Of a stretch of DNA of 64,000 nucleotides, positions 4,934 through 33,148 are shown piece by piece. This stretch comes from an uncultured Ruminococcus sp. GTDB taxonomy: Bacteria > Bacillota > Clostridia > Oscillospirales > Acutalibacteraceae. How positions within the stretch are numbered: the first letter of the stretch is position 1; each line of letters opens with the position of its first letter. Position numbers and translations under genes: made by a program. Below the pieces are notes generated by a model that was given only the letters and a program-made list of their open reading frames with translations, was not told the DNA's origin and made no database searches. The stretch is taken from positions 5,926 through 69,925 of the forward strand of contig CACYWT010000005.1 of NCBI GenBank assembly GCA_902778175.1. Reading direction: 5' to 3'.

Positions 4934-6301
4934 TTATGCTTTTGCTGTTGCCGTTGTTGTATAGAAAGTATAGGTACTTTTGCCTCTCTGCTTTGATTCG
5001 TACATTGCCTCGTCAGCTTTTTCAAACAGATTTGAAGTATCCTTTACTTCTGTTCCGTGAACAACACCAACGCTTGTTGATATTGCCGGCAGACCGTCCT
5101 TGGATTCGGAGAGCTGTTTGTTGATATGCTCTATCTTTGTAGAGATAAGTTCTTTCATTTCAGGAGTTGAATGAACCATGAATACTACGAATTCATCTCC
5201 GCCTATACGGCAGATATAGTCGTCCATACGGAAATTGCTTTTGAGAGTATTCACAAGTTTTTTAAGCACGCGGTCGCCTGTTTCATGACCGAAGTTATCG
5301 TTGATACCCTTGAAATTATCAAGATCAAAAAGGATCATATGTGTAGTAGTGAGATCAACGCTGCTCAGAAGAAGTTCATATCCCGAACGGTTATATGCTC
5401 CTGTAAGCTCATCGTGTGATGCCTTGAAATTAAGACGTTCAAGACTGTTTTTATAAATGGAGTACATTTTGTTATAGGTATGGGCAAGATAACGGAATTC
5501 GTTTGCACCGATCTCTGGGATAGGAGCGCCAATTTTGATCTTTTCCACAGCCTTGAGAATAGGCTTGATGCCAAGGTTAGAGGTAAGAATCACAATAAAC
5601 AGTATCATGATCATCTGAATGATAGAAAGAATACATACGATAAACTGCTGCCTGTGCATATTGTTCATTGAATTATTCTGTTCGTTCAATGTCAGTTTTT
5701 CAAGTTCTTCAAGGCTTTCATTCATATTTTTGCGGATCTTATTTTTCTGGTCATAATAATCATCGTTGAGTACCAGGGTGTTAGCGAGCTTCATTTTCTT
5801 TTCAGATGATAGCTTTGCATCCTTTTCCTTTATCTTGATATCTTTCAGAACATCAGGATAATCATTATAGCCCATTGCATCAATAACAAGACGCATTGCA
5901 TAATATTCCTGATCCATTAGTTTGACAGAGGCATTCATAGCCTCCTGCAGCTGAGAAAATGCCGCCGTAGAGTTTGAATTGACAGACATTTTCTTAATTG
6001 CTTCATCACGGCGGTTGTTTTTGAATGCCTCGGTAAAGTAATCGTCCAAGAATCTTTTGTCGCCGTCAACTGTGAACCTCTGTACGCTTTCGGTAAGATA
6101 ATCTGATGCGTCCATAAGCTCATGCGCAGCTTTTTCAAGTTCGATATGTTCTGTTGTTGCATTTGATAAACTGTTGAATGTGGAATTGAGAAGATAAATT
6201 GAGAACAATGTAAATCCGAAAACGACTGCGGTAATTAATATGAGCCATGAATAAACCATCCGTAGAGAAACTCCTCTTTTTCTCTTTCTTTTAGATGCCA
6301 T
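4934..6301 (-). CDS. membrane-anchored diguanylate cyclase (two TM helices around a periplasmic helical sensor, C-terminal GGDEF)
   Basis: Intact 'RIGGDEF' active-site motif and 'DELTGAYNR' upstream of it. Two hydrophobic segments are present. RBS 'ggagg' precedes the ATG at 6301. Confidence 0.85.
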   Translation of the reverse strand: MASKRKRKRGVSLRMVYSWLILITAVVFGFTLFSIYLLNSTFNSLSNATTEHIELEKAAHELMDASDYLTESVQRFTVDGDKRFLDDYFTEAFKNNRRDEAIKKMSVNSNSTAAFSQLQEAMNASVKLMDQEYYAMRLVIDAMGYNDYPDVLKDIKIKEKDAKLSSEKKMKLANTLVLNDDYYDQKNKIRKNMNESLEELEKLTLNEQNNSMNNMHRQQFIVCILSIIQMIMILFIVILTSNLGIKPILKAVEKIKIGAPIPEIGANEFRYLAHTYNKMYSIYKNSLERLNFKASHDELTGAYNRSGYELLLSSVDLTTTHMILFDLDNFKGINDNFGHETGDRVLKKLVNTLKSNFRMDDYICRIGGDEFVVFMVHSTPEMKELISTKIEHINKQLSESKDGLPAISTSVGVVHGTEVKDTSNLFEKADEAMYESKQRGKSTYTFYTTTATAKA

Positions 6302-21113: not shown

Positions 21114-21986
21114 ATGAAGGGACAACCGCGAAAAAACACTTTAATGCAGCTTCAGGTTGGTATAGTATGGAAGATCGTTGCTTCGTTTGTGATAATGCTG
21201 CTGCTGATTCTTATAGTTTATTACTGTAATATTCCGAATCCGAATATGATACTTATAGCAGGACTTGTCCTGTGCTCGGCAATGTTCGGATACGGAGGCG
21301 GAATAGTGGCGTCGGTTATCATGCTGTTCTATACTTTGTTCTTTTTCTCGACAGATAACAGTTTCATTCATTTTACCGATCAGAGTTTTCAGAAGGTGAT
21401 CGTATCCCTTTTCGGAATAACAGCAGATATGATTCTTGTATGCGCGCTGAAAAGGGCGGAGGTAAATGCTTTCAGAGAAATTGATATTCTGACAGAAAAG
21501 CTCAGAGAAGAAAACAAACATCTGCATAATCTTTCACTTACAGATGCATTGACCGGTATCAGAAATCGTCTTGCGCTGCGTCATGATTATGATCTTTATT
21601 GCAATCATGAGGTAACTGTAATGATGGTCGATCTTGATAAATTCAAAGCCATAAATGATAACTACGGTCATCAGGAGGGCGACAGGATACTGAAAGAAAC
21701 AGCAGCACTTCTTTCTGATACTTTTGGCTTGCAGCACTGCTATCGTTTCGGCGGAGATGAGTTCCTGGTTATCATTCCGGATATTGACGAAGAATTATTC
21801 AAAGAAAGGCTGGATAAAATGATGAAGTCAAGACCGGAGATCAAAGAGAACGGAAAAACTGTACAGGTAGGTTTTTCAATAGGATATGTACATGAAAAGC
21901 TCAGCGATAATGATAAACTCAGGAAAATGTTCTCCTCGGCTGACGAGCTTATGTATGAAGCGAAAATGAAAACAAAATCAGAATAA
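21114..21986 (+). CDS. membrane-anchored diguanylate cyclase (GGDEF)
   Basis: Four hydrophobic N-terminal segments. 'DALTGIRNR' and an intact 'RFGGDEF'. RBS 'aaggaga' is present. Confidence 0.85.
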   Translation: MKGQPRKNTLMQLQVGIVWKIVASFVIMLLLILIVYYCNIPNPNMILIAGLVLCSAMFGYGGGIVASVIMLFYTLFFFSTDNSFIHFTDQSFQKVIVSLFGITADMILVCALKRAEVNAFREIDILTEKLREENKHLHNLSLTDALTGIRNRLALRHDYDLYCNHEVTVMMVDLDKFKAINDNYGHQEGDRILKETAALLSDTFGLQHCYRFGGDEFLVIIPDIDEELFKERLDKMMKSRPEIKENGKTVQVGFSIGYVHEKLSDNDKLRKMFSSADELMYEAKMKTKSE

Positions 21987-22027
21987 TAAGGCAAAGTAAT
22001 AATCTAAAAAAGTATAATTGTAGTGCG

Positions 22028-22133
22028 GTATCTTCACTTATTGATACAGTGAAGATACACACTGCAAAAAACAGGCAAACAAGATACAAGGACGGTGTGT
22101 ATTTTTATGCACCATCAGGTGAAATACACACCG
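22028..22133 (+). promoter_or_regulatory. pair of strong stem-loops with reiterated ATACACAC motif upstream of the Cache/GGDEF-like gene
   Basis: Stem 1 is 11 bp (22028-22038/22048-22058). Stem 2 is 12 bp (22093-22104/22122-22133). Neither is followed by a U-run. 'atacacac' or its complement recurs four times. Confidence 0.35.
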
Positions 22134-22153
22134 CATGAATTGGGGTGTATATT

Positions 22154-23551
22154 ATGATCAGCGCAAAAAACAATGATAAAAAAGTCAGAAGCAGTAAGAA
22201 AAATTTCATACTTGCTCTTATATTGCTTTTATCTACTAATATAATTATGGGCATAGTACTGATGAGCTTGTCCAAAAATTCACTTCGCAGTCAGATCTAC
22301 AGTCATATGCTTGATGTATCAAATATGGCTGCTTATCAGCTTGACGGCGATGAAATGAGAGATATGAAAGCAGAAGATATCGGCAGCGAAAAGTATAACA
22401 AGGCTCTTAAAATACTTCGCTCATATCAGCAAACCATACAGCTTGATTATATTTATGCTGTAAGATCCGATAATGACGGAACTTTCTCTTTTATGATCGA
22501 CCCTGATCCGGATTCTCCGGGTACTTTCGGTGAATCAATAGAAACAACGCAGGCATTGATAAATGCATCAAAGGGTACTGCAGATGTTGACGATGTTCCT
22601 CATACTGACGAATGGGGCAGATTTTATTCTGCATATAGTCCGATATTTGATTCAAAAGGAAATGTTGCCGGTATCGTCGGCGTAGATTTCAATGCAGACT
22701 GGTATGACTCAAAGCTTAATTCAAACAGGGCGGTCGCAGTCATAATAACAATTGTTGCTATGACTATCGGTATAATACTTTCGTTTATTATGATGTCGAA
22801 GAACAGAAAGCGTTTTAATGAAATGCTGAGAAACCTTTCAGAGCTTGATCTGGTAACGCTGAAGCTTGATTCCATGATAATGAAAAGTTCGATCAAAAAG
22901 CTTGATTTTCTGCCGAACAGTGAAAGCAAGGTACTGAAAACACTTGCATCGGGAGAAAGTGACACAAGAGAAGTCAGGAATGAATATGATGAAGTCAGCT
23001 CGAGTATTGAAAGTGTATACGAAAAACTCAATAAATATCTTAAATATTTAGATTCTGAGGTATATACAGACAATATGACCGGCGTCAGCAATAAAGCGGC
23101 ATACAGAAAAGCTGTTAATTCCATAGGGGAGAAGATAAAAGAAGGCAAAGCTGTTTTCTCAATAGGGTATTTTGACATAAACGAGATCACAAATATATAT
23201 ACGATTTACGGATATGAAGCAGGCGATATGGTTATGTATGAAACTGCAAAGGTGCTTATGGATGTTTACGGCAAGGAAAATGTCTTTCATATTACCGGTG
23301 ATGAATATATTGTTATTGTTGAAGACGGCGACGCAGAAAAAATGGAATACTATTTCAGAAAATTTGAAGAAGGTATTGAAAAATATAATACAGAACACAA
23401 TAGTCAGAACAGGATCACAGTCGGAAAAGGGTATGTAATATACGATAAGGAAAAATACCCGGACTACCGGAGTGCTTTCATTGCAGCTAAGAAACGATGC
23501 GATGAAGATAAGGCAGAATATTTCAAAAGAAAGACTCAGCCGATCGAATAA
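22154..23551 (+). CDS. membrane sensor with extracytoplasmic Cache-like domain and degenerate GGDEF domain
   Basis: Cache-type pattern 'YIYAVRSD...DEWGRFYSAYSPIFDSKGNVAGIVGVDF' lies between two TM helices. The C-terminal GGDEF fold has 'ITGDEY' in place of GGDEF. Confidence 0.75.
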   Translation: MISAKNNDKKVRSSKKNFILALILLLSTNIIMGIVLMSLSKNSLRSQIYSHMLDVSNMAAYQLDGDEMRDMKAEDIGSEKYNKALKILRSYQQTIQLDYIYAVRSDNDGTFSFMIDPDPDSPGTFGESIETTQALINASKGTADVDDVPHTDEWGRFYSAYSPIFDSKGNVAGIVGVDFNADWYDSKLNSNRAVAVIITIVAMTIGIILSFIMMSKNRKRFNEMLRNLSELDLVTLKLDSMIMKSSIKKLDFLPNSESKVLKTLASGESDTREVRNEYDEVSSSIESVYEKLNKYLKYLDSEVYTDNMTGVSNKAAYRKAVNSIGEKIKEGKAVFSIGYFDINEITNIYTIYGYEAGDMVMYETAKVLMDVYGKENVFHITGDEYIVIVEDGDAEKMEYYFRKFEEGIEKYNTEHNSQNRITVGKGYVIYDKEKYPDYRSAFIAAKKRCDEDKAEYFKRKTQPIE

Positions 23552-23845: not shown

Positions 23846-24307
23846 TCAAAATCCTTTCTTGTTAATGGAATCTACGACTTTGGCTGCTTCATCATATCCT
23901 TTGTCGAGATTCTGGCTCATATCTGTAACAGCTGTTCTGATATCTTCAAGAGTATCTTTTTTTTGAATCTGTTCCGGATATTTCATCATGCAGGTCTGCA
24001 GTTCATTGACAGTACGTTTCTGGTCATCAGTCAGACCGGTCATAACGAAGGCAAAGCTGTTTGCACTGCTGTAATCGGAAAGGATCCTGCGGTATCTCAG
24101 CGGAAGATCACCCTCGGCGTCCAGATAGGAATCAATATTGGCTGATGTCTTGATAAGATAATTATTGAACTGTGCGCGATATGTTTCCTGTACCCGATGT
24201 GTTTCGTCGATGTAAAGTCCGATGAAGATCAGAAGAGCGATCAGTGTTATAACAAACAGTACGATCGCGCGGATCATACGACCTTTCATTATTTTTTCCT
24301 GTGTCAC
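23846..24307 (-). CDS. single-pass membrane protein, unknown function
   Basis: 153 aa with an N-terminal TM 'AIVLFVITLIALLIFIGLYI'. Its GTG start overlaps the stop of the upstream 1,016-aa gene (GTGA), which implies translational coupling. Confidence 0.6.
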   Translation of the reverse strand: MTQEKIMKGRMIRAIVLFVITLIALLIFIGLYIDETHRVQETYRAQFNNYLIKTSANIDSYLDAEGDLPLRYRRILSDYSSANSFAFVMTGLTDDQKRTVNELQTCMMKYPEQIQKKDTLEDIRTAVTDMSQNLDKGYDEAAKVVDSINKKGF

Positions 24308-27300
24308 TGTGCGTTCACCTCTTCATCAGACTTATTATCAACATTGCCATCATTATCAGCATTTGCATTTTCTTCGGAGGTATCATCTTCCTCTGAGGTG
24401 TCTTTTCCTTCGGAAGTATCATCATCTCCGGAGGTATCTTTTTCTTCGGAGGTATCATCATCTCCGGAGGTGTCTTTTTCTTCGGAAGTATTATCTTCTC
24501 CGGAAGTATCATCTTCTCCGGGAGGATCCTCACCGGTGTTTTCAGGCTTATAATTTTCTGCAGCAAGCCGTTTCTTTTCGGCTTCTATTGCTTCGCGCAT
24601 ACGTTTTTCATATTTTTCCTTTGCTTCTTTATCTTTGTCCTCAGATGCTTCCTTACGAGCTTGTTTGCCTATCTTTATCATAGATTTCAGCTCATAAAGC
24701 GAGATCAGAGTCAGAGGTATCATTACAAGCAGCAGGAACAGCTTGTGAGTATCGGCAAAGGATCCGAGCCACATATAGAATCCGGACTTACGGACATATA
24801 TACCGAATACATTGGACGGTTTAACGGGTATCTGATCGTTTACGGGATTAGCATCTCCTCTTGTGACGAAGGTTCCGTCTCTGCCGATCCATGCGATTCT
24901 GTGGGTGACAAGCTTGCCCTTGATATCCTCCTGATCGGAATAGAAGGAAATGATATCATCTTTTTTAAGGGTAGCCGGATCACACTTTTTAACTATAATA
25001 TAATCATTAACATGAAGTGTTGATTCCATGCTTCCGGTTTCGACCCTGAGAATACTGTATCCGAAAATATCGACCGGATGACCGATGATCGTGCAGGCAG
25101 TAACATATATAGAGAATACAACAGAAAATCCAAGCAGGAATAAAAGCAGACCGTTAAGCAAACGCTTATACAGCTTTCTGTCTGATAAATCTATCTCATC
25201 ACGCCATGCCTTATACCGTTTTGTCTCGCTTACGAACCAGCGGCGGATGTGTTCAAATATGCTTACATGATATTCTCTGTAGAGAGCGCGCATCTCTCTC
25301 TGTATCTCAGCCTGCTGCTCAGGCGTATACTTTGATTTGTATACCGGCCTTGGCTTGTTTTTGCGGTCTTTCTTGCGCTTGCGCTGGAATTTGCGATCCT
25401 GTATACTACGCATAGTGCGGTACTTGAAAGTCTGCGCATACTTTTTGTAGTATACTTCCATTCTGGTTCGTTTTTCTTTTTCTTTTGCTTTCTTTTCGCG
25501 CTTGTCAATAATTTGCTGACGGCGCTCCTTGAAATCCGGACGGTCCGTGTCTTCCGGTATGATTCCGAAAACCATAGCCAGAATATACCTGATAAGACGA
25601 ATGAGCATCCAGAAAGGATTTCTTGAATATTCGCGGCGGATCTGTTTAAAGGGCTTGCTTTCAAAGTACTTGCGCTCTGCTTTAAGCCGCTGTGCGCGTT
25701 CCGTTTCGGCGCGTTCCTTTTCACGCTGCTGCTGTTCCCGTTTCATACGGGCTGCAACCTCTGCCGGAGATTCGTTTTCGGGAAGTTTCTTTGCTGCGGC
25801 AACCTCCGGGGGAGATTCCTTCGCTTTGATATCGGAAGCAGTACCCAGTTCGGAGCGGACACGTTTCTTTTCTTCTGCGATGCGTATTCGTTCGCGTTCC
25901 TTAGCCTCTTCAGCCTCACGCTGCTTCCGTTCTTCCTCGAGTCTGGCTTTTTCTTCCTCTTCCTTTTTGCGTTTTTCCTCGAGAAGCCGCAGACGTTCCT
26001 GCTCCATACGTTCGCGTTCGCGTTCTGCTTCTTCCTGTTCTCTTCGTTTCTGCTCGAGCATTTCCTGGATAAGCCGTTCCTGTTCGGCTTTTTCCGCTTC
26101 AATGCGTTCAAGCTCAGCCTGACGTTCTGCTTCAATGCGTTCTTCTTCAAGCCGCCTGCGTTCCATTTCCTCGGCAAGTCTTTGTTCTTCCAGTTCCTTT
26201 GCCCTGAGTTCTTCCTGATAGTTTTGTTCTATCTGAATAGCAAGTTCGATCTGCTGAAGTATCTCATCTGCATTTTCGGGGACGGATTGCCTGAGCTGCA
26301 TATCGCTTGTCTGTGTGATATAGCCCGAACCGCCTTTTGACGTAGAGTCAAATCTTGTACTGACATCTTCAAACAGTTTAACTATCTTCGGAGCAACAGG
26401 CTCAAGCTGTCTTACTTCCATCAGTTCCTGATCCGGAGAAACAGAGGATCTGAAAAGCAGCAGATGCAGACCGATCAGTTCATAGAAATCATTAATGAAG
26501 TTTTCATTCGGCTGGACAGCCGAATCCTCAATATTGATCTCATAACCGACTTTATCATAGCTTTCGATATACTGCCAAAGTGTAAGGCAGGCTTTGAGGT
26601 CAACATTTTTCATAATTGCGTTGGTACGCATTACCGGGGGACGGATATATGTGCTGCCGAGTGTCTGGCATAATTCAGACCCCTTATAACCTTCAATGAC
26701 CTTTTTAAGCTTTTCGACTCTCTGCCATATCGTATAGCCGCTCCGGTCCCTGGTTTCAAGACTGTGTTCATTTTCAATATGAACTTCAATCTTCATTTTG
26801 CCGCCGTTGCGGTCGTCGATCGAGGTATTGAAACCGAGTGTGAATACTTCCTCGTCCTTTGACACCTTTGCGAGCTTTTCATAACGCATGGTTATGAAGA
26901 TATAAAGTCTGTCGATGAGCGTATTTACAAATTTATTTTCATATGTCATAAGGCTTTCTTCCTTATGAACATTAAGTATTTTCGACGGAGTTATCTTACC
27001 GGTTTTTTTATCAATGCTTTGTATCAGGTCTGTATGCTGAGCCAGATGCTTTACAGATTCTACGGTAATTTTTTTCGATAGTGCTATAGGAACAATCTCT
27101 TCAACGTCCTCGATCGTTCTTCTCGGATTACGCAGGACATTGTCTACATGAATAAGTCCCTTTTCGATCGCCTCGACCCAGGAAGAGTCAATGACCTTCT
27201 GCATTACAATGCGGTTAAGAGCAAAAGATCCTTCCGTGCCTTTGAGAATGTTCATCAGCGATTTGAATTGCGGATCATCTTTATACAGATCCATTACTTC

Positions 27301-27354
27301 ATTGTGTTCCTGATCATATTCGTCACGGTATGGATTTTTTTCTTCATCGCTCAC
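24304..27354 (-). CDS. fusion protein: McrC/DUF2357-like N-domain, E/R/K-rich long helix, TM, SipW-type (S26, Ser/His) signal peptidase, TM and acidic repeat tail
   Basis: The N-terminal ~310 aa are soluble and carry 'TYENKFVNTLIDRL'. Residues ~365-565 are almost only E/R/K/A/Q/L. A TM helix follows ('LLNGLLLFLLGFSVVFSIYVTACTIIG'). The S26 motifs are 'GSMESTL', 'THRI' and 'RGDANPVND'. A second TM helix is 'LFLLLVMIPLTLISLY'. The tail carries DTS-rich repeats. Confidence 0.7.
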   Translation of the reverse strand: MSDEEKNPYRDEYDQEHNEVMDLYKDDPQFKSLMNILKGTEGSFALNRIVMQKVIDSSWVEAIEKGLIHVDNVLRNPRRTIEDVEEIVPIALSKKITVESVKHLAQHTDLIQSIDKKTGKITPSKILNVHKEESLMTYENKFVNTLIDRLYIFITMRYEKLAKVSKDEEVFTLGFNTSIDDRNGGKMKIEVHIENEHSLETRDRSGYTIWQRVEKLKKVIEGYKGSELCQTLGSTYIRPPVMRTNAIMKNVDLKACLTLWQYIESYDKVGYEINIEDSAVQPNENFINDFYELIGLHLLLFRSSVSPDQELMEVRQLEPVAPKIVKLFEDVSTRFDSTSKGGSGYITQTSDMQLRQSVPENADEILQQIELAIQIEQNYQEELRAKELEEQRLAEEMERRRLEEERIEAERQAELERIEAEKAEQERLIQEMLEQKRREQEEAERERERMEQERLRLLEEKRKKEEEEKARLEEERKQREAEEAKERERIRIAEEKKRVRSELGTASDIKAKESPPEVAAAKKLPENESPAEVAARMKREQQQREKERAETERAQRLKAERKYFESKPFKQIRREYSRNPFWMLIRLIRYILAMVFGIIPEDTDRPDFKERRQQIIDKREKKAKEKEKRTRMEVYYKKYAQTFKYRTMRSIQDRKFQRKRKKDRKNKPRPVYKSKYTPEQQAEIQREMRALYREYHVSIFEHIRRWFVSETKRYKAWRDEIDLSDRKLYKRLLNGLLLFLLGFSVVFSIYVTACTIIGHPVDIFGYSILRVETGSMESTLHVNDYIIVKKCDPATLKKDDIISFYSDQEDIKGKLVTHRIAWIGRDGTFVTRGDANPVNDQIPVKPSNVFGIYVRKSGFYMWLGSFADTHKLFLLLVMIPLTLISLYELKSMIKIGKQARKEASEDKDKEAKEKYEKRMREAIEAEKKRLAAENYKPENTGEDPPGEDDTSGEDNTSEEKDTSGDDDTSEEKDTSGDDDTSEGKDTSEEDDTSEENANADNDGNVDNKSDEEVNAQ
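24355..24543 (-). repeat. in-frame 36-nt tandem repeat encoding (EEKDTSGDDDTS)n acidic tail
   Basis: There are two exact 12-aa units (aa 958-969 and 970-981), flanked by degenerate units. The repeat is visible on the plus strand as ggtatcatcatctccggaggt(a/g)tctttttcttcgga. Confidence 0.85.
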
Positions 27355-27503: not shown

Positions 27504-29081
27504 TCAGAATAGTTTTTGCAGTCTTTGAAGGTAAGCGATGGATTCGCCCATTTTATTCTTACCGAAGAGTTTTTGCAGATAAACGCAAAGCTCTTTCAGT
27601 TCTTCACGGAGCATTGCAAGGTTCAGAGATTCAAACTTACGGAAAATTTTTGTAGCGAGCACATAGTCAATACCATCAAGTTCATCGCCGCCGCAGGCAA
27701 CATAAACAGGAACAAACAGTCCCATCTGCTTAAGAATACGGTTACCGAAAGCGACACGGAGCTTTTCAATTACCCACAGGTCGAGCTGATGGATTTTCTT
27801 GAGGTTTTCCTGAGAAATAGGATACATCTTAAAGGCTTCCTCAAACATAGCGTTAAGATGAGAAAAGCTGAGCCGCAGGGGAGGAGTATCCGGAGCTTCA
27901 AATGCGATACCTTTTTCATCAAGGTTGATAGGCTGAGCACGGTCGTAAACCTTATCAGAAATAGCAAATGTGGAGTCGTCGTTATTTGCAGTACCGATAT
28001 ACCATATATTCTGCGGAATATGGATCTTGCCGTGATCGAGCTTGACAGGGTCAGTACTCCATGCATTTGGCACGATATCGAGTTCCCATTCATCTGCATT
28101 GGGCATTTCAAGAATGGAGAGCATTTCTGCGAAATAGTACTCAATACGCGCAATGTTCATTTCGTCGAGGAGTATCAGGTTGACGTCATCATTGTAGCCT
28201 GATGAATAAATACGTTTAAGAACCTCTGTTTCGTTGAAGTTCTTTGTAAATTCGTTGAAGTAACCGAAAAGCTCGGTACGGTCACGCCATGAAGGCTGAA
28301 CAGATGCGATAGTAGTATCGACCTGCAGGAATTTACCGAATGAATAGGGAAGAGATGTTTTACCTGTACCGGAAATACCCTGGAGAATAATAAGCTTTGT
28401 CGAAGCCATACCAGCAAGGAAAAGTCTGATAGTTTTCTGGTCGTAGAACAGGTGCATTCTTGAGCAGGCAAAATTGCGATACCGCTCTACAATACCTTCG
28501 AGAGTGATCTCATTGTCATACTCAGGCGGTATGAAGTTGGAATAGAAATTGTCCACTTCCATGAGCTTTGAGAAACGCCGCTCGGTGGTCTTGACAATAC
28601 CTGCCTCGAGCTCCTGCGGAGCGCCCTCTTCGCCTTCTGCGGGAATACCGTCCGGGGAATAAGTTCCGCCGGAAGCAAGAGAAAGCCTTGCGCTTCCGGG
28701 GACGCCGATCTGAGCGACCTTCATAGCCATGATCTCGTCTTTTTCCTTGACCATTTTTATAACGCGCTGCTGGAGAATAGCGATCTCCTCCAGAAGGTCT
28801 TCATTGCTTACAATGGAATGACGGAAACGGATATATTTCCGTATTGCAAGAATGATGATGAATATGACAAGCAAAAAGATAGCAATGACTATTATGATCG
28901 CCAGAACGGAAAGGATCCATTCCAAAGCGCCGAACTTAGTCGAATATTCCTTGAATAAGTCTACATATTTTCCTATATTGAAAATTTGTTGTATTCCTGC
29001 CCATAATCCGATGAACATCTGCGCAAAGCCCTGCAGTATCTCGGATATGAAGGCGAAAAACCATTTCAAAAAATTATCCAT
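27504..29081 (-). CDS. membrane-anchored McrB-like AAA+ (AAA_5-type) NTPase
   Basis: TM helix 'WILSVLAIIIVIAIFLLVIFIIILAI' at aa ~55-80. Walker A 'GISGTGKT' (nt 28356-28379), Walker B 'LILLDEMN' and 'NIWYIGTANNDDS'. RBS 'aggagga' is present. Confidence 0.7.
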   Translation of the reverse strand: MDNFLKWFFAFISEILQGFAQMFIGLWAGIQQIFNIGKYVDLFKEYSTKFGALEWILSVLAIIIVIAIFLLVIFIIILAIRKYIRFRHSIVSNEDLLEEIAILQQRVIKMVKEKDEIMAMKVAQIGVPGSARLSLASGGTYSPDGIPAEGEEGAPQELEAGIVKTTERRFSKLMEVDNFYSNFIPPEYDNEITLEGIVERYRNFACSRMHLFYDQKTIRLFLAGMASTKLIILQGISGTGKTSLPYSFGKFLQVDTTIASVQPSWRDRTELFGYFNEFTKNFNETEVLKRIYSSGYNDDVNLILLDEMNIARIEYYFAEMLSILEMPNADEWELDIVPNAWSTDPVKLDHGKIHIPQNIWYIGTANNDDSTFAISDKVYDRAQPINLDEKGIAFEAPDTPPLRLSFSHLNAMFEEAFKMYPISQENLKKIHQLDLWVIEKLRVAFGNRILKQMGLFVPVYVACGGDELDGIDYVLATKIFRKFESLNLAMLREELKELCVYLQKLFGKNKMGESIAYLQRLQKLF

Positions 29082-29111: not shown

Positions 29112-29882
29112 TTATTTTTTATCGTCCTGAGAATCAGATTGTTTTTCTTCTTGTTTTTCTTCGCTCGGAGGAGCTTCTTCCTCCGGCTTTTTTTCCTGAT
29201 CTGTCTTATCGGGTCCCGTTTCATCAGCAGGATTTGTATCTGCTTTGTTTTCAGCCTCTTTTTCCTTTTGTGCAGCAAGGTATTCCTCAATAGCGCGGCG
29301 TTTTATTTCTTCCTCGTCAAGCTGGGGTTCGGGCTGCGGATTCTTTACCTTTATGACAGTAACGATAAATTTGTACAGCTCGAACAGGAAGAACAGAGCC
29401 ATAGGAATAAGTATGCAGACAAAGAAACCTACCTTTGTGCGCAGGAAAGCCATGATATTTCCGGCGCCGGTCAGTTTGATATTAGTCCATTTACCGATAA
29501 GCTCAGCCTGATATGCCGGCAGATCATCGTCGATGGGGTTATTGTCGCCTCGGGTGATAAAGCTGAGGCTGTTGCCGGTATCGTTGATACTTACGATACG
29601 GTGGGTATTTTTAACTTTTTTTCCGTCGATAAGCGTCCAGAATGTGATGACGTCATCGACCTTTAAGCTTTTCGCGTCGTCGATCTGTTTACAGATGATA
29701 AGGTCGCCCTCGTTGAAGGTCGGGCTCATTGACTGAGATTCGACTGTCAGGGGAATGAATCCGAAGATATTCGGAACACCACCGCTGTTTGACGAAGAGA
29801 AAACGAGGATAGTAACAAGCAGCGCCAGAATGACAATTAACCATAGAACTACATTGCCGATAATTTTAAGTGCCTTTTTCAT
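29112..29882 (-). CDS. sipW: signal peptidase I, SipW/archaeal-ER type, with acidic C-terminal tail
   Basis: Architecture is TM, 'SQSMSPTF' (Ser), 'THRI' (His), 'RGDNNPIDD', a second TM and a K/E/D-rich tail. RBS 'aaggaga' is present. Confidence 0.8.
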   Translation of the reverse strand: MKKALKIIGNVVLWLIVILALLVTILVFSSSNSGGVPNIFGFIPLTVESQSMSPTFNEGDLIICKQIDDAKSLKVDDVITFWTLIDGKKVKNTHRIVSINDTGNSLSFITRGDNNPIDDDLPAYQAELIGKWTNIKLTGAGNIMAFLRTKVGFFVCILIPMALFFLFELYKFIVTVIKVKNPQPEPQLDEEEIKRRAIEEYLAAQKEKEAENKADTNPADETGPDKTDQEKKPEEEAPPSEEKQEEKQSDSQDDKK

Positions 29883-29903
29883 GATCAGGTTCTCCTTTAA
29901 TTT

Positions 29904-30707
29904 TTACGTTGATTCAGTTATATGGAAATTCATTCCAAATTTGATGGTTCCACCGACGATATCGTCAATACAGTCGGGGTCATTACCCTCGAGCCATATC
30001 ACGACGGTATATTTGTCTTTTGCTTTTGCTTTAAATCCATCGGCTTTGGTTTTCATTACTATAGTAGAGGAGAGAAATGTTTCGTTGCAGTCGCTTTCCT
30101 TACCGCCGCCGTTGGATTTTGTTTTTCCGTAGACAGTTTTATTGCCGTTTTTATAAACTGCAACACGGATAGCCTCATCGACATTTTTTGTAACATTCTC
30201 GATATTTAGTTCGCCCTCATAAGAAATAGTGTCATCGCCGGAGTTTATCAAATAGAATGTATAGGCGATATAATTATCACTGTTATGGGCGCCGTTGATC
30301 TGGTCTACGTTTGCAGGGATATCATTACCGCTGATATTTGTCATATTATAGACGATATCGGCATTGAGTACGGACTGAGAAATATCGTAGTCGGGAGTTT
30401 CCGATAGGGTAAGACCCTGCTTGACCATATCGTATTTGTCGATACGGACGGTAAAGCTGCCGAATTTGGAGTAGAAGTAAGAAATAGCGTAAGCGGCGGC
30501 TACTACCATGATAAGGATAAGGGTTATAAGAGCGAGGATACGGATAAGGATCTTGTATCGTTTAGTTTCTTTTGCGGTACGCCGCAGTTCAAGGACATCC
30601 CTGATATCGGTATCATTGCTTTTACCTTCTTTATTTTTCTTTTTCTTTTTCTTTTCGTTAGGTTCTTCTTTAGTTTCTTCTTTTACCTCTTTTACCTCAT
30701 CAGCCAC
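29904..30707 (-). CDS. TasA-like beta-sandwich protein with Lys/Glu-rich cytoplasmic N-tail and signal-anchor (TapA-like position)
   Basis: 'AAAYAISYFYSKF' follows the TM helix. 'AIRVAVYKNG' and 'IWLEGNDPDC...IKFGMNF' are shared with the 31881..33077 product. RBS 'ggaggtg' is present. Confidence 0.6.
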   Translation of the reverse strand: MADEVKEVKEETKEEPNEKKKKKKNKEGKSNDTDIRDVLELRRTAKETKRYKILIRILALITLILIMVVAAAYAISYFYSKFGSFTVRIDKYDMVKQGLTLSETPDYDISQSVLNADIVYNMTNISGNDIPANVDQINGAHNSDNYIAYTFYLINSGDDTISYEGELNIENVTKNVDEAIRVAVYKNGNKTVYGKTKSNGGGKESDCNETFLSSTIVMKTKADGFKAKAKDKYTVVIWLEGNDPDCIDDIVGGTIKFGMNFHITEST

Positions 30708-30742
30708 ATGAAAACACCTCCGTTCGTTCAGGATGAATAATA

Positions 30743-30776
30743 TACAGATGTAAAGAATATATATTTACAGTCTGTA
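30743..30776. promoter_or_regulatory. imperfect palindrome 36-69 nt upstream of the operon's first structural gene
   Basis: tacagatgtaaa-N9-tttacagtctgta, matching at 12 of 13 positions with a 1-nt bulge. It could be an operator or a 5'-leader hairpin. Confidence 0.45.
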
Positions 30777-30855
30777 CAAAAGCGAGGATAGATCAAGAAA
30801 AATACGATCAACAATTGTAAATGTATTCACTTAACGAAGAAATATTCATAATAAT

Positions 30856-31596
30856 TTATTCAAGCAGCTCGGAAAGCTGCACATAATCGCCCGAAAGTGG
30901 GCCGGCGCAGTAATTGCAGCCGAATTCATAGAAAGCCTCTGCCTGGGTACTGTTTTGCACGCCGTCAGCGATAGGCTCCATACCGAGGTCGTTAATAAAG
31001 GTTATGATAGAATTAACAGCCTGATCGGTACGTTCCTTTTTACCCACGGAATAGGTAATAGACGGGCTGAGCATAACGTAGTCAACGGAAAGCTCGGAAA
31101 GTCTGATATAGGGGCAGCTTATCTCACCGAAATTTTCGAGGATAATATGGTAACCTCTGCGGCGGAGCCTTGCGGTATTATCTGCGGCGACGGAATCGGA
31201 CTGATAGAGAGTCTGTTCCGGAATTTTAAAGCATATAATGTTAGGGGTAATTTTGCTCTGTTCGCAGATCTTATCAGCGAGGGCGGAAGCCGTGCTGTCC
31301 CTGAGGATACTGAGCGGCATATCAATGCAGATCCAGTTAAAGAAGCGTCCTGATTCTTTCAGATTGCGCAGAGCCTCAGCGAGCTGCAGCAGTTCAAGGT
31401 GGAACAGATCTGAGCTTTTGTTGTTTTGTTCTGCGACAGGGCGGAAAGATTCAGGCATAAGGATACCGAGCCCGGGGGTATTAAGGTGTGTACGCGCGAG
31501 GTAGCAGACAGTTCTGCCGCTTGCGATATCGCGCAGAGGGCGGTAATTAAGCTCAATTGCGCGCAGACCGCCGACGTTAGTACGGGTTTCGGGCAT
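30856..31596 (-). CDS. stand-alone degenerate EAL-domain protein (predicted catalytically inactive)
   Basis: EAL-fold pattern 'YRPL..(x)..GILMPESFRPVAE'. The catalytic motifs are replaced: EAL to 'YLA', DDFG(T/S)G to 'ENFGE', K to M in 'VDYVMLS', EGVE to 'DGVQ' and QG to 'AG'. Confidence 0.7.
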   Translation of the reverse strand: MPETRTNVGGLRAIELNYRPLRDIASGRTVCYLARTHLNTPGLGILMPESFRPVAEQNNKSSDLFHLELLQLAEALRNLKESGRFFNWICIDMPLSILRDSTASALADKICEQSKITPNIICFKIPEQTLYQSDSVAADNTARLRRRGYHIILENFGEISCPYIRLSELSVDYVMLSPSITYSVGKKERTDQAVNSIITFINDLGMEPIADGVQNSTQAEAFYEFGCNYCAGPLSGDYVQLSELLE

Positions 31597-31650
31597 GAGC
31601 GCACACTCCTTTCGGGGGAAAAATACACAAATTTAAAGACATATATAAGT

Positions 31651-31679
31651 ATTCTACCATATATTACTACAAAAGTCAA
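31651..31679 (-). promoter_or_regulatory. sigma-A-type promoter for the EAL gene and operon
   Basis: Minus-strand TTGACT-17 nt-TAGAAT with an extended -10 TG. It lies about 55 nt upstream of the ATG at 31596. Confidence 0.6.
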
Positions 31680-31745
31680 ACCAAAGAGAGGGGTATATGA
31701 AAAAAATTAAAACAATAATTATTTCTGAATTTTCTTATAAATGTA

Positions 31746-31774
31746 TTGACAAAATTATATAAAACTGGTACAAT
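31746..31774 (+). promoter_or_regulatory. near-consensus sigma-A promoter for the TasA-like gene
   Basis: TTGACA-17 nt-TACAAT with an extended -10 TGn. It diverges from the minus-strand promoter about 70 bp away. Confidence 0.65.
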
Positions 31775-31880
31775 ATAATCAATAGTATAGCAGCATTGCG
31801 ACTACGGTGCTTAGTGAGGAGCAAAGCTCCCGACAACTACATTAAACTAACTATATTAATACGAGAAAGGAAAATGCTTT

Positions 31881-33077
31881 ATGAAAAAGACAGAAAACAA
31901 AAAAAGCAGAAGCAGCGCGAAGAAAAAGCTAATACCGGCAACGTGTATGCTTTTGGTTTCCGCTACTATGCTCGCAAGCTCAACGTATGCTTGGTTCACC
32001 ATGAATAAGGAAGTTACTCTTACCGGTATGGAAGTAAAGGCAACAGTTGGTGATTCACTGTTGATTGCAAATTCTACAAAGGGTACAGCTCACGCAGCTG
32101 AAAACACATTTGCAAAGGGAACGAATTTTGCTATTACTGGTATGCTTCAACCTGTGTCAACAGTAAATGCAGCAAACAATTCATACTTTTACACATACGA
32201 TGCAAAGGCGGATGGTAGCAAAGCATCAGATACTGCTCAGATTGCATATACTGCAGTAACATATGGTGAAAATGCAAATGCATACAAGGTTTCTACTGAT
32301 GGTGGTACTAATTATGATTATGATGCATTTGTTGATTATGTTGTAGAGTTGAAGGCCATTAACTCTGATTCAGCTAATGCAAAAGAGCTTAGATTGACTA
32401 ATTTGAACCTTTTATATGATGGAGTAGTTCTTCAGGATCATGCTTATCGTGTAGCTATTTTCCAGCAAGATGGAGATAATTCTTCTAATATTATTAATCC
32501 TACCTACACAGCTATAGCTGATACAGCTGGAGCCAACAATATTTTTGCTTATACAGATTTCGATTATTTCGGAACTGATGACAATGCGGAAGGCGTTGCT
32601 TCAACAACAACTAAGGGAGCGATTGTTCCTGATGTAAATAATGAGGCTTGGACAAAGGTTATTCCTGCAGGAAAAACTGATTACACTAAGTTAACGATCA
32701 GGCTTTGGCTTGAAGGCGAAGATACAGACTGCTATTCATCCAAGTTCCTTACTCTAAGCAAGGAATGGACATTAGATCTTAAGTTTGAGCTTGCTGATGG
32801 AGCTTCAGATACCACAACAACAGCTGCGACTACAGCTATTAATAGCGGAATAAAGGCTTCTGCAACAGATGCTGGTGTAGCTTCACTCTCCAGTCCTCAC
32901 ACAAGTGCTCAGGCAGTTTCTTATCAGTGGTACAAGGATAACCTTGGTGCATTGCCTGATACCGAAGTTTCTGGTCAGACCTCCGGTACTTATTCCGGTA
33001 CGGCTGGAAATGTTTACTGCGTAATCACTACTGAGAGAGGAACCAAGTATAGGACCAATACTATTACAGTTTCGTAA
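31881..33077 (+). CDS. secreted TasA/camelysin-like protein with SipW-cognate-type signal peptide and C-terminal Ig-like domain
   Basis: N-terminus 'KKKLIPATCMLLVSATMLASSTYAWFTMNKE' has the A-x-F motif right after the h-region. 'AYRVAIFQQDG' and 'LWLEGEDTDC...LDLKFEL' are shared with the 29904..30707 product. The C-terminal ~55 aa ('YQWYKDN...GNVYCVITT') look Ig-like. Confidence 0.7.
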   Translation: MKKTENKKSRSSAKKKLIPATCMLLVSATMLASSTYAWFTMNKEVTLTGMEVKATVGDSLLIANSTKGTAHAAENTFAKGTNFAITGMLQPVSTVNAANNSYFYTYDAKADGSKASDTAQIAYTAVTYGENANAYKVSTDGGTNYDYDAFVDYVVELKAINSDSANAKELRLTNLNLLYDGVVLQDHAYRVAIFQQDGDNSSNIINPTYTAIADTAGANNIFAYTDFDYFGTDDNAEGVASTTTKGAIVPDVNNEAWTKVIPAGKTDYTKLTIRLWLEGEDTDCYSSKFLTLSKEWTLDLKFELADGASDTTTTAATTAINSGIKASATDAGVASLSSPHTSAQAVSYQWYKDNLGALPDTEVSGQTSGTYSGTAGNVYCVITTERGTKYRTNTITVS

Positions 33078-33117
33078 TCCAAGCGTAAAACAATAACAAC
33101 TAACTAAACACCCACGT

Positions 33118-33148
33118 CCCCCGGATCACAAGTCCGGGGGATTTTTTT
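33118..33148 (+). terminator. intrinsic terminator
   Basis: Stem cccccgga/tccggggg followed by attttttt. Confidence 0.8.

Follow-up and report, generated by a model that had tools for sequence, protein, structure and literature searches.

Two proteins encoded close together in DNA from an uncultured Ruminococcus sp. are established here as real, very distant paralogues. Their genes lie in a 64,000-nucleotide stretch (positions 5,926 to 69,925 of contig CACYWT010000005.1, assembly GCA_902778175.1), which we call the window; within its interval 29904-33077, gene A, for a 267-residue protein, lies on the minus strand and gene B, for a 398-residue protein, on the plus strand, with a stand-alone EAL gene between them. 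The letters A and B denote this pair throughout. We propose that B would be a donor-strand fibre subunit processed by a SipW-type signal peptidase and that A would be its membrane-anchored base or nucleator, a reading whose chances of being right we judge to be about even. Both open reading frames (ORFs) are present, and every peptide string quoted in an earlier reading of the same letters by a model (the first-pass annotation) was recovered by translation.

Two distant paralogues and their shared motif

The first-pass annotation had aligned the two proteins at four places, setting YAISYFYSKF (residues 73-82), AIRVAVYKNG (179-188), VIWLEGNDPDC (236-246) and IKFGMNF (255-261) of A, which also carries KEEPNEKKKKKKNKEGK at residues 13-29, on STYAWFTMNK (34-43), AYRVAIFQQDG (188-198), RLWLEGEDTDC (274-284) and LDLKFEL (298-304) of B. 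BLASTP of A against B detects the motif only (9/15 identical, E 3e-4). With a shallow A alignment against B, hhalign places YVDYVFELKAIN...AYRVAVF on YIAYTFYLIN...AVRVAVY (probability 70%, E 3.9e-5), and with 89 diverse A relatives against 31 B relatives it recovers the WLEG motif and the last strand (probability 95%, E 3.6e-8). Run permissively, it returns a single alignment of A 42-267 with B 2-308 (probability 94%, P 1e-7), which pairs the transmembrane helix with the signal peptide, YAISYF with TYAWF, RVAVY with RVAIF, WLEG with WLEG and the last strands with each other; all four correspondences are thereby reproduced, and the control with a column-reversed B alignment gave P 0.53. Among the 4,711 ORFs of related loci, the A hidden Markov model (HMM) retrieves 25 of the 49 B-type ORFs (best 1.8e-8) and the B HMM 18 of the 84 A-type ORFs (best 8e-4), so that each family finds members of the other and the divergent paralogy first read from the letters holds in both directions.

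The AlphaFold2 (AF2) models show the same strand order over the shared region, with strands at 146-155, 161-172, 180-186, 189-194, 216-225, 230-240 and 255-266 in A and at 151-161, 168-179, 188-197, 220-223, 258-261, 265-278 and 296-305 in B. The first of the four sites is the weakest: YAISYFY is conserved only in a Ruminococcus-type subset of A, and family-wide only [YF]xx[SA]...GxFT[IV] is kept. It could be objected that the resemblance is convergent or due to chance, between unrelated beta-rich proteins with a short acidic motif in common, given that pairwise BLASTP sees just those 15 residues and that the local hhalign matches span only 41-47 columns each. We consider this extremely improbable: the two local profile matches (the YxxYxFxL..RVAvF region and the region from WLEG to the C terminus) are collinear, the permissive alignment joins both with a P value that the reversed control does not approach, HMM retrieval works both ways, and A and B genes are neighbours in distant lineages.

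The two genes and the parts of their products discussed below are as follows.

29904..30707, minus strand: gene A; ORF of 267 residues with a GTG start, 9 nt past GGAGG; operon gene two
30552..30707, minus strand: A residues 1-52, predicted cytoplasmic tail (from the translation; isoelectric point 9.4, 35% K+R)
30483..30551, minus strand: A residues 53-75 (ILIRILALITLILIMVVAAAYAI), the sole hydrophobic helix and putative signal anchor (hydropathy maximum 2.97 at residue 53; AF2 helix)
29970..29996, minus strand: A motif WLEGNDPDC, residues 238-246, running from where the penultimate long strand ends into the loop that leads to the last strand
31881..33077, plus strand: gene B; ORF of 398 residues; a single-gene unit, divergent from the operon
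31881..31991, plus strand: putative B signal peptide, residues 1-37, ending STYA (hydropathy; basic n-region, hydrophobic core)
31992..32042, plus strand: B residues 38-54 (WFTMNKEVTLTGMEVKA), candidate N-terminal donor strand (conservation, and disorder in the monomer model)
32700..32732, plus strand: B motif RLWLEGEDTDC, residues 274-284 (R274, E278, G279, D281 and C284 invariant in 31/31 relatives)
32838..33074, plus strand: B C-terminal immunoglobulin (Ig)-like domain, residues 320-398 (model strands 326-397; Pfam Ig_2 in 4/31 relatives, best E 2.9e-4)

B is an acidic beta-sandwich protein (mature isoelectric point 4.45; AF2 predicted local distance difference test (pLDDT) 78, predicted template modelling score 0.76) with 1,388 homologues and, in the 31 relatives scanned, no Pfam domain in its core. 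Its features suggest secretion, and those of A a signal anchor with a cytoplasmic tail; both appearances, already remarked on at the first pass, hold in hydropathy and in the AF2 models. Cleavage of the B signal peptide is predicted after A37 and before W38, on the model of TasA, in which the signal ends in GTWA and the mature chain, as seen in 8aur_A, begins at A28; hhalign sets B 13-39 on TasA 3-29, with ...LaTSTYA/WFtMN aligned with ...LVGGGTWA/AFND (the slash marks the cleavage point). Residues 38-54, just beyond this point, form the best-conserved block of the family (mean top-residue frequency 0.81 against 0.40-0.69 elsewhere) and hold 7 of the 23 invariant residues (W38, F39, N42, V45, T48, G49 and M50), yet residues 28-54 are unstructured in the monomer model (pLDDT <50); it is this combination that makes 38-54 a candidate donor strand. 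Across B relatives, the Asn of the putative donor strand (N42) and a Lys and a Glu of the core (K158 and E278) are invariant. The extra C-terminal Ig-like domain that the first-pass annotation had given to B is borne out by the model strands and the Ig_2 matches listed above, and it is missing or swapped in about one-third of the relatives.

A is predicted from its AF2 model (pLDDT 89; helix 32-81, then 11 strands) to be a type II membrane protein with a beta-sandwich ectodomain. It has 1,677 homologues, and an exhaustive search, of which the best 150 matches were listed, adds 1,028 cluster representatives. The only NCBIfam match at E<0.1 is a weak one to MacP (E 0.0054) over residues 7-72, that is, the N-terminal tail and membrane helix. 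A Lys/Glu-rich tail of about 50 residues had been described before this helix: a tail of that length (1-52) is predicted and the quoted string is present, but only about the first 30 residues are Lys/Glu-rich, and residues 1-30 are variable and absent in most relatives, which are 237 residues long. Residues 36-52 (RDVLELRRTAKETKRY) form a conserved, basic juxtamembrane segment that is partly kept family-wide, with L39, L41, R42, R43, E47 and K49 invariant in 24 relatives, and this conservation argues for a cytoplasmic contact. A [YF]xx[SA] pattern is conserved at the outer end of the hydrophobic helix; the Ruminococcus-type A-Y-A/I of A resembles the T-Y-A/W of B and is not conserved family-wide. 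Because the first strand of A, GSFTVRI (83-89), starts about 8 residues past the membrane helix, the sandwich would sit at the membrane surface.

Conservation of the shared motif across the family, which the first-pass annotation had wanted checked for WLEGxDxDC, is real for its EGxDxxC core, and the exact string varies. In the B family, whose 31 relatives had been gathered without regard to the motif, R..W.EGEDxxC occurs in all 31 and W276 in 30. The 89-member A alignment had been filtered on the motif, so its invariance there was discounted and conservation was re-measured on unselected cluster representatives: [WFY]-hydrophobic-EGxDxxC is present in 112 of the 136 that reach the C terminus, the rest vary slightly, and Cys is replaced by Thr in about 10 of the 136. 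Apart from the motif Cys, no Cys occurs in 26 of the 31 B cores and 35 of the 89 A ectodomains, and the second Cys of the window's A (C207) is limited to close relatives. An intramolecular disulfide as the family-wide role of this Cys was therefore rejected, the residue often being the only Cys and being Thr in some A. Of the metal site or disulfide originally suggested, the disulfide thus fails as a general explanation, and a cation site or contact surface is plausible. The motif lies where the penultimate long strand stops and the last two strands meet, and in B the seven residues T282-K288 (TDCYSSK) have pLDDT <50. It is most likely a structural or cation-binding site that serves the fold or a strand-accepting groove.

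The gene cluster across genomes

In the window, A belongs to a minus-strand operon from which B diverges. The remaining genes of the operon, and the expression signals around B, are listed here.

30856..31596, minus strand: stand-alone EAL-domain protein, 246 residues; operon gene one (Pfam EAL 1.6e-35)
29112..29882, minus strand: SipW-type signal peptidase I, that is, of the endoplasmic reticulum (ER)/archaeal type, 256 residues (NCBIfam SipW 2.2e-32, TIGR02228 9.7e-28)
27504..29081, minus strand: McrB-like AAA+ nucleoside triphosphatase (NTPase) with N-terminal hydrophobic helices, 525 residues (NCBIfam McrB 1.1e-4; PADLOC PDC-M26A 2.5e-37)
24304..27354, minus strand: McrC-like protein with a fused second SipW-type peptidase domain (residues ~731-912), 1016 residues (NCBIfam SipW 2.4e-19)
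31746..31774, plus strand: promoter-like TTGACA-17-TACAAT with a TG extension, 11/12 consensus matches, ~105 nt before the B start
33116..33142, plus strand: intrinsic-terminator-like hairpin of 11 pairs with a T run, 39 nt past the B stop

The SipW gene starts 21 nt beyond the A stop codon, and orthologues of the 1016-residue McrC-like protein bear Pfam DUF2357. Two SipW-type domains thus adjoin the pair, as had been claimed from the sequence, and the linkage is kept in dozens of genomes. Both copies retain the Ser (SMSPT at 29112-29882, SMEST at 24304-27354), His (THRI) and Asp (RGDNN and RGDAN, respectively) motifs, so both peptidases are probably active, which would permit two substrate classes, namely A and the proteins whose N-termini are of the AWF type seen in B. 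Two GGDEF genes at 21114-23551, just past the operon, make up with the EAL gene a set of cyclic di-GMP (c-di-GMP) genes that flank the cluster. A 6829-residue repetitive surface protein (34557-55046, plus strand) adjoins B; a phmmer search from its N-terminal 600 residues turned up no relative in the 84 related loci, which makes it apparently an unrelated neighbour.

To place the cluster more broadly, we scanned one genome per species in about 186,000 species representative genomes, at least 589 of which contain A relatives; carriers include R. flavefaciens, R. albus, Eubacterium ruminantium, E. uniforme, E. xylanophilum and many rumen metagenome-assembled genomes. Eighty loci were fetched, and gene order was counted on the 50 that are at least 15 kb long. 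The order EAL - A - SipW - McrB-like - McrC-like is found in 48 of these 50, with the second peptidase fused or encoded by the next gene, and 31 of the 50 have a B-type gene within 10 kb, located upstream, in either orientation, or downstream, past the second peptidase. B-type genes are sometimes multicopy (locus L042), and in the distant lineages reached through B (loci L001-L004) an A-type gene is directly upstream of B. In loci with both genes, the median identity to the window proteins is 77% for the McrB-like protein, 68% for A, 60% for SipW, 41% for the EAL protein and 30% for B; a slow A and a fast B are the pattern of a machine part and an exposed subunit. Between Ruminococcus (Oscillospiraceae) and Lachnospiraceae isolates (L019, L032 (Eubacterium ruminantium), L062 (E. 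uniforme), L081 and L082), A is 64-73% identical, and the neighbouring B genes in those Lachnospiraceae, where found, are 25-28% identical to the window's B. A conserved A beside so divergent a B would mean that A and the NTPase are very strongly constrained, or else that the operon has been transferred between rumen Clostridia.

A signal peptide and AWF-type N-terminus like those of B also head other, otherwise dissimilar proteins of related loci. At L003:9255-14090, and likewise in L004, an A-type and a B-type gene are followed by genes for 234-residue and 737-residue proteins, and the N-termini of these two carry the B-like ...[FY]AW[FL] signal-end motif (…TTCAFAWFSL… and …SITYAWLTL…). No SipW or McrBC-like gene was recognised near this region of L003 and L004; on its 237-kb contig, the L003 region is adjoined by genes for the DNA polymerase III beta subunit, RecA, ClpP, clamp loader, ribosomal protein S21 and Lon. 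Two further AWF-type families, one of about 225-290 residues (INSP...AHTTN...KETD.VY.TA; at least 13 loci) and one of about 330-430 residues (AWFT..REVEGS.M.M; at least 12 loci), usually lie side by side near B or the operon (for example, at L008:18620-20622, L012:18675-20702, L045:12013-13701, L063:14975-16685 and L034:6364-8310). Neither has a member in the 64-kb window, and the longer strand-like stretch that follows AWF is repeated only in the second of them. One N-terminal module on differing bodies is a hallmark of heteropolymeric pili, so the sharing of the AWF-type N-terminus by different proteins would be expected if such pili were formed.

Bovine rumen metatranscriptome contigs match the McrC-like gene, the McrB-like gene and the junction of SipW and A with at most 2 mismatches, and contigs over A and B have 7-10 mismatches. 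One contig of 311 nt (29674-29984; 2 mismatches) runs from the end of A into the start of SipW and is consistent with a single transcript. At a low depth that may include DNA, these contigs show transcription of this or a near-identical strain in the rumen, with A co-transcribed with SipW; the window's DNA is also found in bovine and goat gut metagenomes. Judged by homologues that carry a species name, the source organism falls in or close to Ruminococcus flavefaciens. Promoter-like sites in the region are no more frequent than in shuffled sequence, the site before B being a consensus match only, and terminator-like sites number 28 against 9.2 expected.

Judged by the McrB-like match, DUF2357, the SipW domains and the gene order, the cluster corresponds to the CoCoPALM class, which was named and predicted to be pilus-linked by Bell et al. 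(2024, PMC11090510), with its analysis deferred to a later publication in the portion of that paper drawn on here. The class and the present cluster share an McrB-type GTPase with membrane and coiled-coil parts, an McrC homologue and proteins of the signal-peptidase family. They differ in that the A and B families go unmentioned in that portion of PMC11090510, whereas here A is almost always a member and B is often found nearby. No experimental study of this cluster was found in the literature searched.

Relation to TasA-type fibres

By sequence, A and B are outside the TasA/camelysin family, to which the first-pass annotation had likened them. Pfam Peptidase_M73 (PF12389) matches neither A nor B at E<0.1 and none of 31 B and 89 A relatives at E<0.05, in contrast to the TasA homologues collected here, every one of which carries it. 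The NCBIfam models for TasA, TapA and the SipW-cognate signal match neither protein. The last of these had also been put forward as a check on the leader sequences, and it turned out negative: TIGR04088 gives no match to four AWF-type N-termini at E up to 10, whereas the TasA N-terminus scores 8.9e-11 in the same search. Against an alignment of 32 TasA relatives, built for the test and with the TasA sequence verified against 8AUR, the B family reaches an hhalign probability of 1.9% (P 0.026) over signal-peptide residues 13-39 only; for the A family P is 0.09, with reversed controls at 0.18-0.28. Neither profile-profile comparison is significant. Other resources were equally silent: neither family profile, searched against PDB sequences at E up to 10, gave more than chance matches, Pfam, NCBIfam, PHROGs and PADLOC hold nothing meaningful for A or B, the NCBIfam scan found no similarity to TapA/YqxM in A, phage and plasmid collections contain no copies, and the database entries for both families are all named 'hypothetical protein'.

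Structure comparison gives a more nuanced picture. The first Foldseek match of the B model is the PA14 lectin Cea1A, and several PA14/Flo-type lectins and CBM32 follow; among its top nine are four fibres of the TasA superfamily, namely the Sulfolobus Saci_0406 thread 7pnb (E 3.3e-3, probability 0.69), the CanA cannula in 7uii (E 5.6e-3) and, weaker still, the TasA fibre 8aur (E 3.1e-2, probability 0.47) and CanA in 9hdi (E 3.1e-2), with chaperone-usher and Gram-positive pilins lower. These thread, CanA and TasA fibre entries are classed as a TasA superfamily of donor-strand fibres in the part of 10.64898/2026.01.04.697558 used here. The weak scores of B can be attributed in part to its floppy N-terminus and to the extra domain. 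For A, the top matches are PA14 inserts of GH3 and GH31 enzymes (E 1.2e-3 to 4.5e-3, probability up to 0.96). For the TasA-like fold anticipated at the first pass, the matches are thus weak: those of B stand at E 3e-3 to 3e-2 with template modelling (TM) scores of 0.31 or lower, and A matches PA14-type sandwiches best. On these models and sequences, we file the pair as proteins that would work like those of the TasA superfamily and are not members of the TasA family.

Among the closest known systems is TasA of Bacillus subtilis (8AUR), likewise a secreted, acidic, beta-rich protein encoded beside an ER-type SipW, with a signal peptide that ends T-[YW]-A ahead of an aromatic-Phe pair (STYA/WF in B; GTWA/AF in TasA), a conserved N-terminal candidate donor strand and a minor partner encoded alongside. 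B differs in being all-beta with an added Ig-like domain and in matching neither TIGR04088 nor the TasA HMM or profile; the operon differs in its McrBC-like NTPase and second peptidase; and A, unlike TapA, is a true paralogue of the subunit, with a predicted cytoplasmic tail and transmembrane helix. The first-pass annotation had read the pair as a major subunit with a membrane-anchored partner: the contrasting rates of change of A (68%) and B (30%) fit that arrangement, and the likeness to TapA is an analogy only.

In the sipW-bsa operon of Clostridium perfringens, two paralogous TasA-like proteins are encoded, of which BsaA forms long polymers and BsaB does not; the N-terminal strand of BsaA is disordered in monomer models and inserts into the next subunit in multimer models, in agreement with mutagenesis, and the polymers are attached to the membrane and not to the wall (10.1101/2024.11.04.621531). 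The present pair resembles this system in being a clostridial SipW system with two paralogous proteins and in the disorder of the N-terminal strand of B in its monomer model, and N42, K158 and E278 of B are the residue types of the Asn-Glu-Lys isopeptide lock of BsaA, matched by type alone. The two systems differ in that BsaA can be reached from TasA by iterative profile searches (10.1101/2024.11.04.621531), whereas A and B were not linked to TasA by our profile tests, and in that the bsa operon has no McrBC-like genes. The Saci_0406 threads (7PNB) and CanA (7UII, 9HDI) are among the best structural matches of B and also have acidic subunits, and loci of the superfamily share with this one a dedicated signal peptidase I (SPase I), minor subunits, membrane anchors and c-di-GMP enzymes, as far as the part of 10.64898/2026.01.04.697558 used here goes. 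Set against threads, CanA, AbpA and AbpX, the matches fall below usual significance (E 3e-3 or worse), WxEGxDxxC goes undescribed in that part of the source, and the peptidases at the A/B locus are of the short SipW type, one of them fused to the McrC-like protein.

Proposed mechanism and its alternatives

We infer a mechanism in which a SipW-type peptidase would remove the B signal peptide after ...STYA, so exposing the highly conserved strand WFTMNKEVTLTGMEV. This strand would insert into the sandwich of the next subunit by donor-strand exchange, as in TasA, BsaA, CanA and the archaeal threads, and the resulting B polymer would be an acidic fibre that bears the C-terminal Ig-like domain. A would remain in, or start from, the membrane, with its homologous sandwich held on the outer face, and would act as the base or nucleator for B polymerisation. 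Through A, and under c-di-GMP control, the membrane-embedded McrB/McrC-like NTPase and the second peptidase may also be connected with fibre assembly. A more far-reaching version, in which A and B would found a new, unannotated branch of donor-strand fibres and A would couple their growth to the membrane McrBC-like GTPase and the McrC-fused peptidase, in effect an NTP-driven, c-di-GMP-gated assembly machine for a TasA-type fibre, is one that we put forward tentatively and regard as rather doubtful; in that version, either the EGxDxx[C/T] site or the N42/K158/E278 set of B could be a covalent or cation-dependent lock between subunits.

Several observations count against the fibre reading. Sequence comparison gives no significant link to TasA-family models; all Foldseek matches of B are weak (E 2.5e-3 or worse, TM 0.31 or lower); and those of A are led by PA14-type sandwiches, with the thread 7pnb only at rank 22. 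B is not within 10 kb of A in 19 of the 50 long loci, including several R. flavefaciens isolates. The monomer model of A puts its first strand (85-89) in its own sandwich, so that A may not exchange strands, and the transcript contigs are assembled ones of low depth, in which carry-over of DNA is possible.

Among the alternatives, A might be an accessory subunit of the adjacent ER-type signal peptidase, with its sandwich packed on SipW in the manner of SPC22/23 (Spc3) of the eukaryotic signal peptidase complex or of the DUF5305 accessory proteins known from TasA-superfamily loci, and B a substrate of shared ancestry. Such a role would suit a gene immediately upstream of SipW in 48 of the 50 long loci (with a 21-nt gap here), a protein with a single N-terminal helix and a membrane-surface sandwich, and a rate of change as slow as that of the peptidase and NTPase; sandwich proteins are also encoded beside, or fused to, SPase I in AbpX and Tafi loci, according to the part of 10.64898/2026.01.04.697558 used here. 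A has, however, no Pfam or NCBIfam match to SPC22 or DUF5305, its top 50 structural matches contain no chain of a signal peptidase complex, and its homology to the putative substrate over the whole sandwich, motif included, is not something that an accessory subunit predicts, so we hold this to be unlikely. We give a poorer chance still to A and B being calcium-dependent PA14-like or lectin-like carbohydrate-binding domains that adhere to or sense plant fibre and do not polymerise. It is true that PA14 inserts of GH3 and GH31 enzymes are the best structural matches of A and Cea1A the first of B, that both ectodomains are acidic, that the EGxDxxC acidic loop could hold a cation or be a sugar site, and that the organisms are rumen cellulolytic Clostridia. 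Yet Pfam PA14 (PF07691) matches neither A, B nor any of the 120 relatives, in which no CBM match was found either, and TM is 0.41 or lower against PA14 domains of the Flo/Epa/Cea1 type and the GH3/GH31 inserts. The genomic context and the membrane position of A are unlike those of a lectin: with only about 8 residues between helix and sandwich, A would lie beneath the cell wall, out of reach of plant polymers. Nor would such a role account for the strict genetic association with two signal peptidases and an NTPase, or for the conserved, unstructured N-terminal strand of B with its shared AWF-type leader.

It is very unlikely, in our view, that the cluster as a whole serves anti-phage defence or conflict on the basis of its McrBC-like NTPase, with A and B as membrane or envelope effectors or sensors, even though the NTPase is McrB-like and matches the PADLOC phage-defence candidate PDC-M26A (2.5e-37) and orthologues of its partner carry the McrC-type DUF2357. 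No nuclease domain is present, and PADLOC matches neither B nor, apart from the NTPase, any protein of the operon, be it A, SipW or the McrC-like one. The cluster is chromosomal, without phage or plasmid copies, and keeps a stable order in at least 589 of the ~186,000 species genomes, and defence islands are usually patchier in distribution. Genes for c-di-GMP turnover flank it, and the authors who named the class predicted pilus assembly in the portion of PMC11090510 drawn on here. A small part of the probability, finally, we leave to explanations outside those listed here.

Systems of the kind that combine SipW with a TasA-like fibre were already known, and the cluster class had been named. 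New here are the recognition of the two families as paralogues, the place of A as a constant core gene, and the proposal that a subunit paralogue is anchored in the membrane and coupled to an NTPase. The two families are large, with more than 1,000 database members each and no Pfam or NCBIfam name, and the related genomes examined all belong to gut or rumen Clostridia. On the current view, fibres of the TasA type self-assemble extracellularly with no input of energy. In the present cluster, the conserved gene order and the cytoplasmic segment of A tie a subunit paralogue to a McrBC-type membrane GTPase, and the role of a restriction-enzyme-like motor in envelope assembly becomes a testable question. 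If B does form fibres and A does anchor them, the two would be the missing structural parts of CoCoPALM clusters, which would then be a matrix or pilus system, one common to Ruminococcus flavefaciens, R. albus, Eubacterium ruminantium and other major degraders of plant fibre, and thus one that would bear on how these bacteria colonise feed particles.

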